From Oscillospiraceae bacterium (lineage in GTDB: Bacteria; Bacillota; Clostridia; Oscillospirales; UBA929), in NCBI GenBank assembly GCA_009782385.1, contig WRJE01000004.1, forward strand, positions 1,549-65,548: a stretch of 64,000 nt of DNA, read 5' to 3'. Position numbers and translations under genes: made by a program. Positions 1,959 through 8,550 of this stretch are shown here, in pieces (within the stretch, counting starts at the first letter, position 1; each line of letters begins with the position of its first letter). The notes under the pieces are model-generated. The model searched no databases and had not been told where the DNA came from. It saw nothing but the letters and a program-made list of their open reading frames with translations.

Positions 1959-2179
1959 AGATTAACACCTCCGTTAATATTATAATATATATTGAGGCAA
2001 TCTGTCAACACAAAAAATTTTTTTAAAAAAGGCTTGACAAAGCGGGGGGGGAGCTATAATATATAATGTGAGTAGCGCAACCCTATACTTTTGCATTAAA
2101 TTTAAACAAATAAATAAAGTTTTAGAAAAAACTATAAAAGCGATAAATGGGCAATAATAACGTGTGAGCGTTGAGTTTT

Positions 2180-3775
2180 ATGAAGCGTGTTTGTGCTTAT
2201 TGCAGGGTATCGACAGAGCAAGACGACCAGTTAAACAGCTTAGAGAATCAAAAAAGGTATTTTGAGCAATATATCAGCAATAATCTTGAATGGCAGTTTT
2301 GCGGGCTGTATGTTGACGAGGGTATATCAGGTACGAACGTCAATAAGCGTGCAGGGTTTCAGAAAATGGTACAGGACGCGGAAACACAAAAGTTTGACCT
2401 TGTGCTAACCAAAGAAATAAGCAGATTTGCCCGTAACACCTTAGACAGTATTTTCTATACCAGAAAACTAAAATCACTGGGCATAGGCATAGTTTTTATG
2501 AACGACAACATAAACACATTAGAGCCTGACGCAGAATTGAGATTAACAATTATGTCCAGTATAGCACAGGAAGAAAGCCGTAAAACCTCCGATCGTGTAC
2601 GGTGGGGACAGAAACGGCAAATGGAAAAAGGCGTTGTATTTGGGAAAGGTGTTTACGGCTATCACTTAAATAACGGTATGCTTTCTATTAACGAAGATGA
2701 AGCTAAGATAGTCAGACTGATATTCAAACTCTATCTTGATGAAGGTATGGGCGTATATGTTCTTTGTAAAGAACTTGAAAATAGGGGTATTCGCTCGCCT
2801 AGTGGTGATATGCGATGGAAAGACGCTAGTATACTGCGAATGTTACGCAATGAAAAATACTGTGGGACACTAAAGCAAAAGAAAGAAATCACGACCGATT
2901 ATTTAAGTCACAAAAGAAAACTCAACGAGGGTGAGGAAGATTTTGTTATCATCGAAAATAGCCATACTCCCATAATTGATAAACAGACTTTTGACAGAGT
3001 ACAACAGGAGTTAATAAGAAGACGCACTAAGCAAATTGAAAAGGGCAGACATTCTAACCGTTATGTATGGTCGGGCAAAGTGGAATGTTTTCATTGCAAA
3101 TCGAAGTTTAGACGCAAAGTAAACAATATGAACTCGCCATATCCTCAAACTGTATGGCAGTGTGGCGAAGCTAAAAAATACGGTAGTAAAAAAATCAACG
3201 CCAACGGTCAGATTGCAGGTTGTGACTGTAAGCAAATCCATGAGCTGATATTACAGGCTAGTTTTATGACTGCTTTAGATACGGTGCTAAAAAACAAAGA
3301 AAGTGTTTTAGAGAGGCTAAAAGATGTTATACATGGCACATTATCAGAAATAGGGGACTGTGCCGAAGAAACACGGGAAATTGAACGGGATATTGCACGG
3401 ATAAACGGGCGGAAAGTAAAGCTGATGGAACTGTTTTCAGGTGAAGCAATCACCAGAGCCGAGTTTAACAGTGTAAACGACCAGTACAACAAACAACTGG
3501 AAACCGTTTTTAAGCGTCAAGCTAAAGTCAATGAAACCATTGATAAAGCAGGAGATTTGAAAGAACGGCTTGCGAATATTGACACTTTATTATATAGCCT
3601 TTTCACTAACGCAGTATCCGAAGAAGATTTTATTTTCAGTGAAAAAGTGTGTAATGAGACATTGCATAAAGTGGTAGTTGAGAGCAGGGACAAGGTTAGT
3701 TTCTATTTGAAAGGTTGCGAAAACAATGAACCTTTTTTTATACCCCTTTCCCTAACGAAGTGGGGACTGCGTTAG
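2180..3775 (+). CDS. Large serine recombinase (resolvase/invertase N-domain, recombinase domain, zinc-ribbon/coiled-coil)
   Basis: N-terminus KRVCAYCRVSTEQDDQ...SRFARN (catalytic Ser motif). Central recombinase-domain motifs. Cys cluster CFHC...CGEAKKYG...CDC. ~530 aa. I prefer the ATG at 2180 over the TTG at 2171. Confidence 0.9.
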   Translation: MKRVCAYCRVSTEQDDQLNSLENQKRYFEQYISNNLEWQFCGLYVDEGISGTNVNKRAGFQKMVQDAETQKFDLVLTKEISRFARNTLDSIFYTRKLKSLGIGIVFMNDNINTLEPDAELRLTIMSSIAQEESRKTSDRVRWGQKRQMEKGVVFGKGVYGYHLNNGMLSINEDEAKIVRLIFKLYLDEGMGVYVLCKELENRGIRSPSGDMRWKDASILRMLRNEKYCGTLKQKKEITTDYLSHKRKLNEGEEDFVIIENSHTPIIDKQTFDRVQQELIRRRTKQIEKGRHSNRYVWSGKVECFHCKSKFRRKVNNMNSPYPQTVWQCGEAKKYGSKKINANGQIAGCDCKQIHELILQASFMTALDTVLKNKESVLERLKDVIHGTLSEIGDCAEETREIERDIARINGRKVKLMELFSGEAITRAEFNSVNDQYNKQLETVFKRQAKVNETIDKAGDLKERLANIDTLLYSLFTNAVSEEDFIFSEKVCNETLHKVVVESRDKVSFYLKGCENNEPFFIPLSLTKWGLR

Positions 3776-4121
3776 CTATGGCAAAATCCTCGCGGTTCAC
3801 GTAGTCGATAAGCGTCAGCCCGTTGTCATGCGCCTGCTCGAGCAGCCATAGCGGGATACGCCCGCCAATGCCTATTTGGTCGCCGCGCATAACATTTACT
3901 ATTTCATTGGGACTAAAGGCTTCGCCGATGATATTGACCGCACCCGCTTTCGTCAGCATAGGCAGCGGCCAGATGACGCACTCTGCCCGCGCCACGGCAT
4001 CTTCGATACTGTTTGCGGAGTTCTGCCCGATTCCCCAAGTGTATACCTTGTGACCGTCCTGCAAAAGCAGGCGCGTCAGCCGCGCTTGCCGTTCATCGCC
4101 GCCGATAACTGTATAAATCAA
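3738..4121 (-). pseudogene. dpaA: 5' part (~120 codons) of dipicolinate synthase subunit A, truncated at the recombinase-element junction
   Basis: TTG start preceded by GGGGAGGG. IYTVIGGDERQ...NREDFAIANAVPT is colinear with the N-terminal DpaA/SpoVFA family. After PT, six unrelated codons and a stop follow. The expected family length is roughly 290-300 aa. Confidence 0.75.
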
Positions 4122-4149
4122 AAAAAGCCCTCCCCATAGATACAACGCA

Positions 4150-4196
4150 CAGATAACAGATTACAGATAACAGATAGCCCTGCACACTGTTATCTG
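4150..4196. promoter_or_regulatory. Three copies of CAGATAACAG (two direct, one inverted) upstream of dpaA
   Basis: CAGATAACAGAT at 4150-4161 and 4164-4175. The inverted copy CTGTTATCTG is at 4187-4196. The motif lies 30-75 bp upstream of the dpaA start. Confidence 0.3.
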
Positions 4197-4238
4197 TTCA
4201 CTGAAACGGTTCTACCACATTGTATTCGGGGAGGGGGG

Positions 4239-4718
4239 TTATTGTGAGGATAATGTATCGACTACTTTAAGCAGCTCATCAATATTGACTTCATTGTTAA
4301 AATAAAAACAAATACAAAGAGTGGTCTCTTGGCTGTTTTCGATGTTAGCTGTAATGTCAGAAACTCTCATTTCATCGTTATATATATCACAAAGATAATC
4401 TTCTTCTCCATAAATCTCAAACCTATATTCGCTTGCTATTTGGTGATAATCCATACGGAGAGCTTTTTCTTTTGACAGTTTAATTTCAAGCCAGACGCAA
4501 TCAATATCAATTCCTATATCCCCGATACCATTCAACGAGATAACAGGAATTGGAAAAGTTTCTGTTACAAAAACTCCGTTATGCTTTACGGAATGGTTGT
4601 TGAAAAAACCGCTTTTTATCTGAATCCCCGATTTTTTCAAGGCTTTGCGTATTTCGTCATATTTCGCGCAAATCGGAGCGTATATCTCATTAAGATAATT
4701 CAATACTTCCATGTTCAT
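4239..4718 (-). CDS. Hypothetical cytoplasmic protein
   Basis: 159 aa from the ATG at 4718 (MNMEVLNY) with a GGAGGT RBS. No recognised motif. AT-rich. Confidence 0.5.
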   Translation of the reverse strand: MNMEVLNYLNEIYAPICAKYDEIRKALKKSGIQIKSGFFNNHSVKHNGVFVTETFPIPVISLNGIGDIGIDIDCVWLEIKLSKEKALRMDYHQIASEYRFEIYGEEDYLCDIYNDEMRVSDITANIENSQETTLCICFYFNNEVNIDELLKVVDTLSSQ

Positions 4719-4735
4719 TTTATTACCTCCATCGG

Positions 4736-4768
4736 CAAACAATCCTCGCAGGTGACAATATCAACACC
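4736..4768. repeat. Left copy of a 33-bp direct repeat (duplicate of the 3' end of the DUF1667 gene)
   Basis: caaacaatcctcgcaggtgacaatatcaacacc; 32/33 identical to 6956-6988. Confidence 0.95.
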
Positions 4769-5040
4769 TAAAATAGGTCTGAATGAGTGCCTGTGCGTGA
4801 AGCGGTTAATATCAGCTTTTTCCCGTCAATTAAGTAAATGAGAAGCCAGTCCGACTGAATGTGACATTCTCGAAACCCGTTATAATCTCCGGTCAGCTCA
4901 TGGTCACGGTGCTTCGGGGCAAGCGGCTTTTGCTCGCGGAGCGTTTGAATGATTTCGTCAAGCAGTTCAATTTTAAGACCGCGTTTTTTACATAGGTTGC
5001 GGTCTTTTCTATATTTTTTAGTTGTATGGAGAAATAACAT
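4768..5040 (-). CDS. yafQ: Type II toxin, YafQ/RelE family mRNA interferase
   Basis: KHRDHELTGDYNGFRECHIQSDWLLIYLIDG...RTGTHSDLF matches the YafQ C-terminal signature. The start lies just downstream of the antitoxin gene's stop (2-nt gap). Confidence 0.85.
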   Translation of the reverse strand: MLFLHTTKKYRKDRNLCKKRGLKIELLDEIIQTLREQKPLAPKHRDHELTGDYNGFRECHIQSDWLLIYLIDGKKLILTASRTGTHSDLF

Positions 5041-5042
5041 TA

Positions 5043-5342
5043 TTACGCATACTCCGCATCATACTCGGCATCTAACTCCGCATTGAGTTCGGTAACGGAG
5101 TTATAACCTTTAGATTGAATCTTGCCGCTTGCAATATCCCGCGCTTCTTTCATGGCGGCTAATGTTTCTTCGTTGTATTTTGGTAAAGTTATGTCGAAAG
5201 GCAAGCCGCCGACAATCATAGATTTGTGTAGAAAAATATTTACCGCGTCCGCTACGGTAAGTCCAAAATGAGAAAAGATTCCGTCAACGGTTGATTTAAC
5301 TTCGGGTTCAACCCTAATATTTATACTTGCAGTTTTAGCCAT
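5043..5342 (-). CDS. dinJ: Type II antitoxin, RelB/DinJ family (RHH)
   Basis: MAKTASINIRVEPEVKSTVDGIFSHFGLTVADAVNIFL is a typical DinJ N-terminus. It lies immediately upstream of yafQ. Confidence 0.85.
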   Translation of the reverse strand: MAKTASINIRVEPEVKSTVDGIFSHFGLTVADAVNIFLHKSMIVGGLPFDITLPKYNEETLAAMKEARDIASGKIQSKGYNSVTELNAELDAEYDAEYA

Positions 5343-5366
5343 ATCAATCACGTATAATAGAATCAA

Positions 5367-6943
5367 CCCAAGATTTGGGGGTGGTTCTATTATTTTCCCC
5401 TTTCATAAAATTTGGTTATATCAGCGGGATTAGCTGCCCGACAGATATAATAGATGTGGCGCTGCGGATTTGTACATCTTAATCTACGGCTTTGACTGTT
5501 TCGGGGTGACTCAAACCGCAGACACCTGTCTAAATTGGTAATCAGTTGGTTAACGCATTGACGTTTTATATGCGTGAGTACATGGCAGGTGTTCTGCGGC
5601 AAACCGTGCCGCGCCGAATACTATTTTTTGGAGGTCTGCCAATGAATAACGTAGGAATCGACATCTCAAAGTACAAACATGACTGCTTCATCGTCACCGA
5701 CTTCGGTGAGGTTTTGAACGAAGGTTTTTCCTTCGAGAACAACGCCAAAGGTTTTTCCATGTTGCTGGACGAGCTGCTCAAAAGCGACAAAGAAAACCTC
5801 AGAATTGGCTTTGAATCAACGGGAAACTACAGCATCAACCTCAAATTGTTTCTTGAGAAAAACGGGTATTCCTTCATGGAAATTAACCCGGTTCTCGTTA
5901 AAGAACATATCAAAAGCCAATCTTTGCGCCGTACCACAACGGACAAGCTCTCTGCAATGGCGATTGCAAACTATTTAATCTCAAAGGAGTATTTGCCCCA
6001 TCTGAAATCCTTTTACCACACCTTTTCACTCAAACAGCTAACGAGGCTCAGGAGCGACCTTGTACACCAACGCAGCCGGTATCTCGTTCAGCTCACAAAC
6101 GTATTAGATTGCGTCTTCCCTGAGTTTAAGCCGTTTTTTGACGGGAAGTTCTCGGCAACCGCTCTGTTCATATTGACAAATTATCCTTCTCCTGAAAAAA
6201 TCGCCAACATGAACGTGAAATCCTTTGATATTCTTCGCCGCAAATCCCGCGGCAAGTTTTCAATGGATAAGTTTGTCATGCTCAAACACTTAGCCAAGAA
6301 CACGGTGGGGATGTATACTGATTTCTATGGGATTCAGATGGATGCTCTTTTGGACATTTACTACCAAATCGACTGCAAGCTCTCTGAGGTTGACGCTGAA
6401 ATCACCAAAATCATTACTGAAATTAATCCGCCTACGCTCTCAATAAAAGGGGTCGGCGAGGTGTCGGCCGCTGTAATCGTCTCGGAGTTCGGTGACTTTT
6501 CCCGCTTTCCAAATCCGGGCAAAATGCTTGCCTTTGCCGGACTTGAACCCGGTTATTTCCAGTCCGGCATCGCCGAACATAACGGGCGTATGGTTAAACA
6601 TGGTTCAGCGCATCTGCGCTGTGCTATCCTGAACTGCTGTCGGGCGTTGCGTCTTCACAACGAGGTCTTCGCAGCCTATTACTTAAAGAAAATCGGCGAG
6701 GGCAAGGAACACGGGGTTGCCGTGAGCCATATGGCCAAAAAGCTAATTCGCCTGATTTTCACTCTTGAAACCAAGGGCGAGAGGTTTGACCCGGCTAAAC
6801 TGAGATAGTTTGACTTCTCTTCAAAATCGCCCTTTCACATGGGCTTGTTTGTTATACCGTTTTTCAGCTTGTGAATTTTATTTCAAAAAAGACTTGACTT
6901 CTAATAGTTGGTCACCCCACTTACAGTATACACCATTTTAGAA
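5367..6943 (+). mobile_element. IS110-family insertion sequence (ends not defined)
   Basis: Single DEDD-type recombinase gene flanked by ~275 bp (5') and ~135 bp (3') of non-coding DNA. No terminal inverted repeats, as expected for this family. Confidence 0.6.
5642..6808 (+). CDS. IS110-family transposase/recombinase (DEDD N-domain plus IS116/IS110/IS902 C-domain)
   Basis: MNNVGIDISKYKHDC..., then ...GVGEVSAAVIVSEFGDFSRFPNPGKMLAFAGLEPGYFQSG...KHGSAHLR. GGAGG RBS before the ATG at 5642. Confidence 0.9.
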   Translation: MNNVGIDISKYKHDCFIVTDFGEVLNEGFSFENNAKGFSMLLDELLKSDKENLRIGFESTGNYSINLKLFLEKNGYSFMEINPVLVKEHIKSQSLRRTTTDKLSAMAIANYLISKEYLPHLKSFYHTFSLKQLTRLRSDLVHQRSRYLVQLTNVLDCVFPEFKPFFDGKFSATALFILTNYPSPEKIANMNVKSFDILRRKSRGKFSMDKFVMLKHLAKNTVGMYTDFYGIQMDALLDIYYQIDCKLSEVDAEITKIITEINPPTLSIKGVGEVSAAVIVSEFGDFSRFPNPGKMLAFAGLEPGYFQSGIAEHNGRMVKHGSAHLRCAILNCCRALRLHNEVFAAYYLKKIGEGKEHGVAVSHMAKKLIRLIFTLETKGERFDPAKLR

Positions 6944-7303
6944 TCAAATACAACACAAACAATCCCCGCAGGTGACAATATCAACACCCGTGCCAAGTAT
7001 GTCCGTGACAACCACATCACCCGCAAGAATCGGCGGATTGATATGAGTGCGGCGCAGCACTTGCATACACGGCAGCAGCATTGCTTTAGGCAGCGGGAAC
7101 GCCGATTTTACAGGCACGGGCATACCGTTCCCCGCAACGGCAACCGTTGTTGTGAGCATACGGCGCGGGTCGAACAGCTCCGATTGCGCGTATGTCTCGC
7201 CGCGCTTGCAGGCATTGCCCGTCAGCTTGCTTATCTCCCCACCGTTAACGTCCGCGTTCATGCGGCAGCCCATGGGACACGAAATACACGTTATCTCTTT
7301 CAT
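6944..7303 (-). CDS. DUF1667 family protein of the anaerobic glycerol-3-phosphate dehydrogenase cluster
   Basis: MKEITCISCPMGCRM...CKRGETYAQSELFDPRRMLTTTV. ~120 aa. Follows the two flavoprotein genes, which is typical in Clostridia. Confidence 0.8.
   Translation of the reverse strand: MKEITCISCPMGCRMNADVNGGEISKLTGNACKRGETYAQSELFDPRRMLTTTVAVAGNGMPVPVKSAFPLPKAMLLPCMQVLRRTHINPPILAGDVVVTDILGTGVDIVTCGDCLCCI
6956..6988. repeat. Right copy of the 33-bp direct repeat (within the 3' end of the DUF1667 gene)
   Basis: caaacaatccccgcaggtgacaatatcaacacc; encodes GVDIVTCGDCL on the minus strand. Confidence 0.95.
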
Positions 7304-8550
7304 CAGTCAAAATCCTGTTCCGGCAGCTCAACAGCCACCGTTATTTGTGACGGCGCGTGTTTAAGGTTAACTGTCACTCTCTGCATTTCACCCGGGGTGA
7401 CTATTTGCGCGCGTTTTGAATAGACACGCTCCGCGTCCGCGTATACAACGATATTAGCCTTGCGGTAGACATCTGTCGGGCGGAAGTACAGTATATGCTC
7501 GCCGCTCCCGCAAATAAACTGCGGCACGGCATACCTCACGCGGTTTCCCGCGCGGACGACCGCGCGTTCGCCGCCGTAAGGCTCTCCCTTGACATAACGC
7601 GCCGCTCCCGCTCCCGCGCGGAACGCCTCTTCCGTGACAAAGTCAACCAAATCGTGGACGTGGACGGCGTTGCCGCAGGCGAAAACACCCTCGCGCAATG
7701 TTCGCATATGCTCATCGACTATCGGCCCGCCCGTTGAGTTGTCAAGTATGACCCCGGCAGACTTTGACAGCTCGTTTTCGGGTATCAGTCCCACAGACAG
7801 AAGTATCGTGTCACACTCCACAAAGAACTCAGTGTCAGGAATCGGCTGCCTGTGTTCGTCCACTTGCGCGGCGGTAACGCCCTCAACGCGCTGTGTGCCG
7901 TGTATGCGCGTAATTGTGTGGTTAAATTTCAGGGGGATGTCGAAGTCCTCGACACACTGCACGATATTGCGCGTCAGTCCGCTGCTGTACGGCATGATTT
8001 CGCATATGAGCTTAACTTCCGCGCCCTCGAGCGTAAGCCGCCGCGCCATGATAAGCCCGATGTCGCCCGACCCGAGTATGACGGCTTTCCGCCCCGGCAA
8101 GTAACCCTCGATGTTTACAAGCCGCTGTGCCGCTCCCGCTGTAAATATACCCGCAGGGCGCGTACCGGGTATCAAGAGCGCACCGCGCGTGCGTTCGCGG
8201 CAACCCATCGCCAGCACGACCGCTTTAGCGTCAATTTCCATTGTGCCGTGCTTGGGACTGATGACCGTCAGCGTCCGTTCGGGTGTCATGTCCAGTACCA
8301 TTGTGTCGGTTAAGACCTCTATTCCCAAAGCATTGACCTGTTTTATAAAACGCAGGGCGTACTCCGGCCCCGTGAGTTCTTCTTCAAAGTGGTGCAACCC
8401 GAACCCGTTGTGTATGCACTGCGGCAGGATTCCGCCGAGCCTCTCGCCGCGCTCGATGATTAAAACACCGTCAACGCCGTTCTCTTTCGCGGCTATTGCC
8501 GCCGCCATGCCCGCCGGCCCGCCGCCTATAATTACGATATTACGTTTCAT
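7303..8550 (-). CDS. NAD(P)/FAD-dependent pyridine nucleotide-disulfide oxidoreductase
   Basis: Two dinucleotide folds, IVIIGGGPAGMAAA and AVILGSGDIGLIMA. Translationally coupled to its neighbours. Confidence 0.8.
   Translation of the reverse strand: MKRNIVIIGGGPAGMAAAIAAKENGVDGVLIIERGERLGGILPQCIHNGFGLHHFEEELTGPEYALRFIKQVNALGIEVLTDTMVLDMTPERTLTVISPKHGTMEIDAKAVVLAMGCRERTRGALLIPGTRPAGIFTAGAAQRLVNIEGYLPGRKAVILGSGDIGLIMARRLTLEGAEVKLICEIMPYSSGLTRNIVQCVEDFDIPLKFNHTITRIHGTQRVEGVTAAQVDEHRQPIPDTEFFVECDTILLSVGLIPENELSKSAGVILDNSTGGPIVDEHMRTLREGVFACGNAVHVHDLVDFVTEEAFRAGAGAARYVKGEPYGGERAVVRAGNRVRYAVPQFICGSGEHILYFRPTDVYRKANIVVYADAERVYSKRAQIVTPGEMQRVTVNLKHAPSQITVAVELPEQDFD

Follow-up and report, generated by a model that had tools for sequence, protein, structure and literature searches.

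Introduction

In insertion with long target duplication, DNA without mobile-element genes is flanked by direct repeats of more than 30 bp, which often lie across the start or stop codon of a gene and thereby spare the target gene (Furuta, Abe and Kobayashi 2010, PMC2853133). The term is used by Kobayashi's group for restriction-modification (RM) systems, and breakage of DNA by the cargo has been suggested as the cause (PMC2853133); an earlier description, as cited in PMC2853133, is Nobusato 2000 (Gene 259:99). Insertion sequences (ISs) of the IS110/IS1111 type make no target duplication (PMC11187229), and the circular form of IS110 elements is expected to have a sigma-70-type promoter at its junction (PMC11208160). 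That ectopic DNA anneals at microhomologies during replication has also been documented (10.1101/2023.11.22.568220). Here we analyse a locus in a 64,000-nucleotide stretch of an Oscillospiraceae bacterium (assembly GCA_009782385.1, contig WRJE01000004.1, positions 1,549 to 65,548; hereafter the window), where a dinJ-yafQ toxin-antitoxin (TA) pair and an IS110-family element lie between two copies of a 33-bp repeat at the 3' end of a DUF1667 gene of the glp operon.

Each part of the locus belongs to a known kind: the IS is a bridge-RNA element of the IS110 family, the TA pair is of the YafQ-DinJ type, and the capture is an insertion with long target duplication. Its present structure is probably the outcome of two independent events, the capture of a TA cassette with duplication of the target by a recombinase-free route and the later insertion of the IS110 element, a reading that we hold with moderate confidence. 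Recombinase-free illegitimate recombination is the most likely mechanism of the capture.

Layout of the locus

The sole long repeat family detected by a repeat search of positions 3500-8500 is the 33-nt direct repeat at 4736-4768 and 6956-6988. The two copies are 32/33 identical (97%), with a T at 4746 and a C at 6966, and their starts are 2220 bp apart, so the enclosed unit is 2187 bp long. An earlier note on this DNA had described the same repeat around three genes; the repeat search and Pfam reproduce both the identity and the genes. These are a yafQ-family toxin gene (4768..5040, minus strand, 90 aa; Pfam YafQ_toxin PF15738, E 1e-31), a dinJ/relB-family antitoxin gene (5043..5342, minus strand, 99 aa from the ATG at 5342; Pfam RelB/DinJ PF04221, E 5e-12) and an IS110 recombinase gene (5642..6808, plus strand, 388 aa). 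The antitoxin and toxin genes are adjacent and in one operon, as expected of a type II TA pair of the YafQ-DinJ kind. The recombinase has the DEDD_Tnp_IS110 (RuvC-like) and Transposase_20 domains of the IS110 family, with Pfam E values of 3e-32 and 4e-20. Although the repeat encloses the three genes, it does not bracket the IS from end to end, as its right end stops 40 bp (6916-6955) short of the right copy; the left end, at 5349, lies 6 bp from the dinJ ATG.

The right copy (minus strand) remains within the open reading frame (ORF) of the DUF1667 gene (6944..7303, minus strand, 119 aa; identified with Pfam), where it encodes GVDIVTCGDCL followed by CCI and a stop codon; the last three codons and the stop are derived from the cassette. 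The left copy (minus strand), with the T4746 variant, is now non-coding and runs leftward into the old DUF1667 tail. Read in the DUF1667 frame it gives GVDIVTCEDCL followed by PMEVIK and a stop. The TGA of this stop overlaps the start codon at 4718 (ATG), which is preceded by a GGAGGT box. The earlier note's translations of both copies, its GGAGGT box and its TGA/ATG overlap were all correct on re-reading. The last base of the yafQ TAG stop is common to the left repeat copy. The 33-mer folds as DNA no better than shuffled sequences (z -0.95), and inspection by eye found no dyad symmetry of the Xer/dif or serine-recombinase att type.

Empty and filled alleles

An exact-protein look-up of the product of the DUF3201-like gene (4239..4718, minus strand; weak Pfam match) returned one metagenome contig, L024, which carries the empty site. 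Its DUF1667 protein has 123 aa (...GVDIVACGDCLPMEVIK; ending CGDCLPMEVIK) and its gene overlaps the DUF3201 gene by an ATGA, with neither TA pair nor IS. Beyond the DUF3201 gene, L024 has the same dpaA fragment and serine recombinase as the window. The 33 bp are present once (positions 1200-1233), align to both window copies and run on into the PMEVIK tail. This supports the view that the left copy leads into the former DUF1667 3' end, and the empty site is as the earlier note had predicted (...CEDCLPMEVIK, then the gene at 4718), with CGDCLPMEVIK and the ATGA overlap. A second contig from the same sample, L031, assembled independently with MEGAHIT, is a filled allele that is 99.8% identical to the window. 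It begins with the DUF3201 start and the left copy of the repeat, in its T variant, after which come yafQ, dinJ and the left end of the IS. The 33-bp repeat is neither a chance match nor an assembly artefact, since there is a single copy at the empty site and L031 reproduces the left junction. The presence of L024 and L031 in one sample means that the insertion is polymorphic within one community. Among the 61 GTDB relatives searched for an empty site, the closest DUF1667 match is 44% identical and the same-genus metagenome-assembled genomes (MAGs) lack the gene.

The window and L024 do not differ at all over 4137-4745 (609 bp) and 7131-7671 (541 bp). Two differences fall in the left copy (4746 and 4753), where T4753 matches the right copy and L024 has C, while the segment that abuts the insert on the other side (6989..7130) is a diverged patch of about 10%, with 13 substitutions and a 3-bp indel. 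As the differences are clustered beside the insert, the insert sits in a short, approximately 10%-diverged tract, which suggests that the capture took place in a diverged lineage and that the filled allele was imported by homologous recombination.

Further dense patches of mismatch to L024, with about 30 differences per 100 bp, occur at 2185-2281 and 8050-8164. They fall in an oxidoreductase gene and at the beginning of the serine recombinase gene, and the surroundings of both are identical. These patches point to frequent short mosaic recombination in the population.

The polarity could in principle be reversed, with the filled state ancestral and the L024 site a precise deletion between the 33-bp copies, as direct repeats of this length can mediate such deletions and the GTDB relatives searched provide no outgroup of the species with the locus. 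We consider this very improbable. In the empty allele the two genes are coupled by an ATGA and look native, the GC content of the cassette (42%) and of the IS (45%) is below that of the glp genes (56-58%), and the relatives of the cassette are on mobile elements. Reversal would, moreover, change only the relative age of the sampled alleles, as the duplication would still need an insertion event.

The IS110 element

The ends of the IS were set by alignment with six other copies (L025-L030, 78-89% nucleotide identity) in four unrelated contexts, which are an IS21-like pair, an rnf/apbE cluster, an unknown gene and a short contig with the IS alone; none of them carries a TA pair. All six copies align to the window just from 5349 or 5378 to 6915-6921. 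In multiple alignments the homology opens at CAC/GTATAAT and closes at TTGGT/CAC (slashes mark boundaries here and below), with unrelated DNA outside. The element is an IS110-family insertion sequence of about 1564 bp (5349..6915, plus strand) with the core CAC at 5349-5351 and 6913-6915, and it is placed antisense between the Shine-Dalgarno (SD) sequence and the ATG of dinJ. Relatives of its recombinase number thousands, many of them on contigs of about 1.5 kb.

The left end of the IS (5352..5641, plus strand) comprises 290 non-coding nucleotides, a candidate bridge RNA, and has a -10 box (TATAAT, 5353-5358); the right end (6809..6915, plus strand) contains a -35 box (TTGACT, 6894-6899). When the right end, one CAC and the left end are joined, the boxes form TTGACT-17 nt-TATAAT, the promoter expected at a circle junction, as far as can be read from the sequence only. 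The repeat search found no inverted repeat joining the IS ends, which have instead a long non-coding upstream end and a short shared core, and no Rfam family was detected in 4600-7100 at E values up to 1.

A 16-nt inverted repeat is present at the extreme left end of the IS (5354-5393; ATAATAGAATCAACCC / GGGGTGGTTCTATTAT), and its arms are altered compensatorily in the 78%-identical IS lineage (ATAATGGAGTTATC / GGGGTATCTCCATTAC). It may be either a 5' hairpin of the RNA or a donor guide that pairs with the IS end.

Variable segments within the otherwise near-invariant left end follow the flanks of each copy. In the window, the left guide-like segment CATCTTAATC (5475-5484) resembles the left flank CATATCAATC, and GGGGTGAC (5503-5510) is complementary to the right junction GTCAC/CCC. 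In L025, CCATTACGC is identical to the copy's own left flank and GGAGGTGAC is complementary to CAC/CTCC. For the left guide against its own flank (n=33 relatives, GTDB genomes), the observed score was reached by 1 of 2000 shuffled pairings; the right guide is weaker than the left, with 54 of 2000 shuffles reaching the score (n=8). Guide and flank sequences thus covary in the manner of a bridge-RNA IS110.

L025 and L026 carry the same IS copy with the same right flank, an IS21-like element, and different left flanks, and of the two only L025 has a left flank that matches the guide. The difference may be due to a rearrangement at the IS end or to an assembly chimera.

The antisense start codon, CAT, is 5-7 nt from the core in 23 of the 33 loci and the right flanks read as SD boxes (GAGGTG, GGAGATG, AAGGAG), on which grounds this IS110 clade homes to the SD-spacer-ATG region of genes. 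The target of the window IS is the translation-initiation region of dinJ, CCATATCAATCACCCCACTT. Across the wider clade (loci L118-L197; 53-71% amino acid identity, in Firmicutes and other gut MAGs) the IS is likewise antisense between an SD box and a start codon, and the core varies along with the guide (CAC, CAT, CTC). IS900 is also said to insert between a ribosome-binding site and a start codon. In Mycobacterium avium subsp. paratuberculosis, IS900 has the host-expression-dependent hed gene (PMC8141618).

No guide segment of the window IS relates to the 33-bp repeat. The end of the repeat, ATATCAACACC, resembles the real target, ATATCAATCACC, and was considered as a pseudo-target of the IS; it was rejected, as the match works only with a 1-nt shift from the core and shows no pairing with the left guide, and insertion by IS110 makes one breakpoint and not two that are 33 bp apart.

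The dinJ-yafQ cassette

If position 5351 is joined to 6916, the resulting leader (...TGTTGTATTTGATTCTAAAATGGTGTATACTGTAAGTGGGGTGATTGATATG) is colinear with the IS-free cassettes L032, L035, L116 and L117. Without the IS there remains a dinJ-yafQ cassette of about 620 bp that extends from the promoter as far as the stop codon. Its IS-free relatives are 84% (L032), 82% (L035) and 75% (L033/L034) identical at the nucleotide level and also include L116 and L117; the dinJ start codon at 5342 aligns with their starts. The detached part of the leader (6916..6955, minus strand) is homologous to the leaders of L032, L035, L116 and L117, contains the first half of the dinJ SD (GGGG) and has a putative promoter (TTGTAT 6953-6948, a 17-nt spacer and TATACT 6930-6925), which was found by reading, as a consensus scan made no call. 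The cassette starts some 7 bp upstream of its -35 box and finishes with the final base of the yafQ stop; the homology to IS-free cassettes opens at GTTTG/TGTTG(T/C)ATTTG and closes at the same stop. The first 12 bases of the leader, TGT TGT ATT TGA, are the new DUF1667 tail (CCI-stop).

The IS110 is a separate element with its own ends, which would have arrived later inside the cassette leader. The earlier note had offered two alternatives, that an IS110-type recombinase was moving a TA passenger or that an IS had landed beside an older TA cassette. The first does not hold, as the other IS copies end at the equivalents of 5349 and 6915 and never with the TA pair; the second is essentially right, except that the IS is inside the cassette leader rather than beside the cassette.

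The 33-bp sequence was found in none of the cassette or IS relatives examined. As the IS-free relatives lack it, the 33 bp are a target duplication and not insert-borne, contrary to the note's view that the inserted DNA had brought a copy of the target with it. L032, L116 and L117 are homologous to each other for 150-260 bp past the yafQ stop, so the window cassette is a sub-fragment of a larger donor context and has no fixed ends. Type IV secretion system (T4SS), integrase and DUF4368 genes surround the cassette relatives. A search of the bacterium's own genome gave weak paralogous matches to dinJ and yafQ but no further copy of the unit. Among the matches listed in a YafQ scan of Joint Genome Institute (JGI) metagenomes no relative exceeds 70% identity, which is too distant for cassette boundaries to be drawn from them.

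These results bear directly on the principal proposal of the note, a site-specific islet in which the 2187-bp yafQ-dinJ and IS110 unit is one element, integrated by the IS110 recombinase, with its own 33-bp copy of the target regenerating DUF1667. The repeat brackets exactly the three genes, within one metagenome the unit is either missing (L024) or there (L031) as a block, and IS110/IS1111 elements can move cargo placed inside their ends (PMC11187229). In this locus, however, the TA genes are outside the IS ends: the note had held that IS copies which end short of the TA pair and never include it would refute an islet, and the left end of the other copies, at 5349, leaves the pair out. The guides match the dinJ leader and not the 33-bp sequence, IS110 elements exchange strands at a core of 2-3 nt and make no long duplication (PMC11208160, PMC11187229), and the unit is single-copy in the genome, with no 33-bp att-like copy in any cassette or IS relative. 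We regard the islet as scarcely credible and reject it. An integron cassette was also considered and set aside, as inspection of the cassette borders by eye revealed no core sites of the attC type.

Two side observations concern the cassette relatives and paralogues. The 3' extension of yafQ (L032:2107-2368, L116, L117), which is absent from the window, contains a long imperfect hairpin whose arms differ compensatorily between loci (GACACTTTCCGGC...GCCGGCAAAGTGTC vs GACGGTTAGGC...GCCATAACCGC). In the bacterium's own genome (contig C22), a 26-nt direct repeat that is 85% identical and 2084 bp apart (L002:639-664 / 2723-2748) brackets another dinJ-like locus and could be due to chance; at the two other TA-like loci of the genome (L002, L003) the flanking matches are weak, at 22-26 nt.

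Origin of the 33-bp duplication

Both joints of the cassette can be read to the base. At joint 1 there is a 5-bp microhomology, GTTTG, common to the target (GATTGTTTG/CCG) and the cassette (GC GTTTG TGTTG); at joint 2 there is a 1-bp microhomology, the G at TAG/GTGTTG. With 5+1 bp of the 33 repeated bp attributable to junction microhomology, the duplication is 27-33 bp long. As the cassette has no repeat, att site or recombinase of its own, the event belongs with insertions with long target duplication.

We propose that about 620 bp with dinJ-yafQ, taken from a mobile-element setting, were copied into DUF1667 at its very 3' end. The capture would consist of two template switches, or of templated repair synthesis, in which the growing DUF1667 strand, primed at GTTTG on the cassette, is extended as far as the TAG and then re-anneals on the original template 33 bp behind its point of departure. 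The filled allele would then have passed between lineages by homologous recombination, leaving the approximately 10%-diverged patch on both sides, and the IS110 element of about 1.56 kb would have inserted later, by site-specific recombination guided by its own RNA, antisense between the SD and ATG of dinJ. The conserved DUF1667 domain is intact because the duplication spans the stop region. The ORF stays open because the insertion is past the conserved part and because the cassette promoter region happens to supply three codons and a stop; DUF1667 tails are unconserved past GVDIV(A/T)C.

The diverged patch could also be read as a footprint of homology-facilitated illegitimate recombination (HFIR). 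A diverged donor with the TA pair directly behind DUF1667, and with no duplication, would have had a homologous anchor near 7131 and an illegitimate join at the yafQ stop, with the recipient joined 33 bp upstream of the DUF1667 stop region; the right copy would then be donor DNA, the left copy recipient DNA and the duplication a by-product. Such an origin fits the position of the diverged tract, nearly all of which is on the DUF1667 side (6989-7130), the left flank being 99.8% identical to L024 up to the repeat, and the 1-bp microhomology of the left joint is typical of the illegitimate end of HFIR. However, 2 of the 33 positions of the left copy differ from the empty-site lineage but none of the adjoining 609 bp do, and T4753 is the allele of the right ('donor') copy. 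That the left copy is donor-like and not recipient-like weakens the case for HFIR, and in no lineage searched does the TA pair follow DUF1667-CCI with the second copy missing. We think that HFIR, the main rival, can be entertained as the origin but is unlikely.

The same tract argues against a different origin, in which the unit circularises between the 33-bp copies and re-enters naive strains by Campbell integration through RecA, since a circle with 33 bp of homology would not bring a 142-bp diverged tract to the right of the insert. A variant of this origin invokes an unknown nuclease or integrase with a stagger of about 30 bp that ligates free DNA, for which there is no candidate gene in or beside the insert, the neighbouring serine recombinase being that of the element that splits dpaA. 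A homology of 33 bp comes close to the least that RecA-dependent recombination requires, both alleles occur in one sample, and insertions with long target duplication recur across bacteria with no known mechanism; even so, we judge both forms of this proposal to be quite unlikely.

Several points weigh against capture at microhomologies followed by IS insertion. Of the two microhomologies only GTTTG is of convincing length, the 1-bp one being uninformative. No experiment has established how insertions with long target duplication arise, and an enzyme that makes staggered cuts of about 30 bp is possible. The order of the two events is deduced from the structure of the locus, and exact look-ups of the 119-aa DUF1667 and 99-aa DinJ proteins found no TA cassette without the IS at this locus. 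The right junction, with its CCI tail, was present solely in the window's own assembly in exact-protein look-ups. Five other cassette contexts have no flanking direct repeat spanning the cassette, so there is no evidence that the process recurs for this cassette family.

We also consider, as a doubtful extension, that small TA cassettes may spread routinely at gene ends by recombinase-free insertion with long target duplication, through templating at microhomologies. If this is true, the duplication both preserves the target gene and leaves a handle of homology for later excision or re-entry; the locus would be a base-resolved instance from a Firmicute, and DNA-cleaving cargo such as that of RM systems would not be required.

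Consequences for the genes of the locus

DUF1667 has kept its conserved domain and changed its tail. The DUF3201 gene has lost its ATGA coupling to DUF1667 and is now downstream of yafQ. The IS separates dinJ-yafQ from its promoter and SD, and because the operon is cut in this way the TA pair may be silent, or may be driven from the IS left end (5476-5447, minus strand), where a weak promoter-like site faces outward.

The GC content of the DUF3201 gene is 34%, and that of its neighbours is 54-58%. Of 301 genomes of the order, only 9 carry a DUF3201-like gene, and none of these is from the same family. The DUF3201 gene, and with it the 'ancestral' tail, is probably an earlier acquisition at the same DUF1667 end; with this insertion the spot would have accreted foreign DNA at least three times.

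To the left of these genes, the N-terminal part of dpaA (3738-4145) is next to a gene for a large serine recombinase (2171-3775). The region 2171-4145 thus has a skin-like intervening element, and the arrangement is the same in L024.

Comparison with known systems

The locus is an example of how a repeat-bracketed block that contains a recombinase gene need not be one mobile element. The IS resembles IS110 elements of the IS621 / ISEc21 type (PMC11208160, PMC11208158, PMC11187229) in its DEDD and Transposase_20 domains, its long non-coding left end, the lack of inverted repeats and of duplication beyond the short core, the sigma-70 promoter rebuilt across the joined right and left ends and the left-end segments that covary with the flanks. 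Unlike in those elements, its core appears to be (C)AC and not CT, its target is SD-spacer-ATG with the IS always antisense, and it is known here from sequence alone. The TA pair resembles the YafQ-DinJ systems of E. coli (PDB 4Q2U/4ML0) and H. pylori (HP0892/HP0894) in its antitoxin-first, two-gene operon, its RelB-family antitoxin and its 90-aa YafQ-family RNase toxin, which aligns end to end with the solved toxins. It differs from the studied pairs in having about 40% identity to them or less and in that the IS has cut the operon from its promoter and SD. It is a natural case of an RNA-guided IS that severs a TA operon from its promoter and ribosome-binding site.

The joints resemble those of double illegitimate recombination over short patches (SPDIR) and HFIR in naturally transformable bacteria (10.1101/2023.11.22.568220; 10.1101/2024.07.02.601687; PMC8116780), with microhomologies of a few bases on both sides, no dedicated recombinase and a tract of donor-type polymorphisms nearby. 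By contrast with SPDIR, which yields microindels of tens of bases, 620 bp were inserted here and the target was duplicated, not replaced.

A further likeness is to the RM insertions with long target duplication (PMC2853133), in which a small selfish module without transposase or integrase lies between repeats of more than 30 bp that align to one copy at the empty site of a relative, here at 1200-1233 of L024. As in those insertions, the repeat is across the stop region of the target, and the target gene survives. Criterion iii of PMC2853133 asks for more than 30 bp; 33 bp are repeated here, and once microhomology is taken into account the duplication is 27-33 bp, which places it, with 27 bp unambiguous, at the short end of the range. 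Such insertions contain no other mobile element; the insert here does contain the IS110, which has its own ends and target and interrupts an otherwise contiguous cassette. The locus differs further from the RM insertions in that its joints can be read to the base, with microhomology, and in that a separate IS has since landed in the insert. The cargo differs as well, being a type II TA pair that lacks the proposed property of breaking DNA. YafQ is an RNase toxin that cannot cut DNA, so breakage by the cargo cannot apply here, which argues against cleavage of DNA by the cargo as the force behind such insertions. To this poorly understood class the locus adds a case with TA cargo in which both joints are readable.

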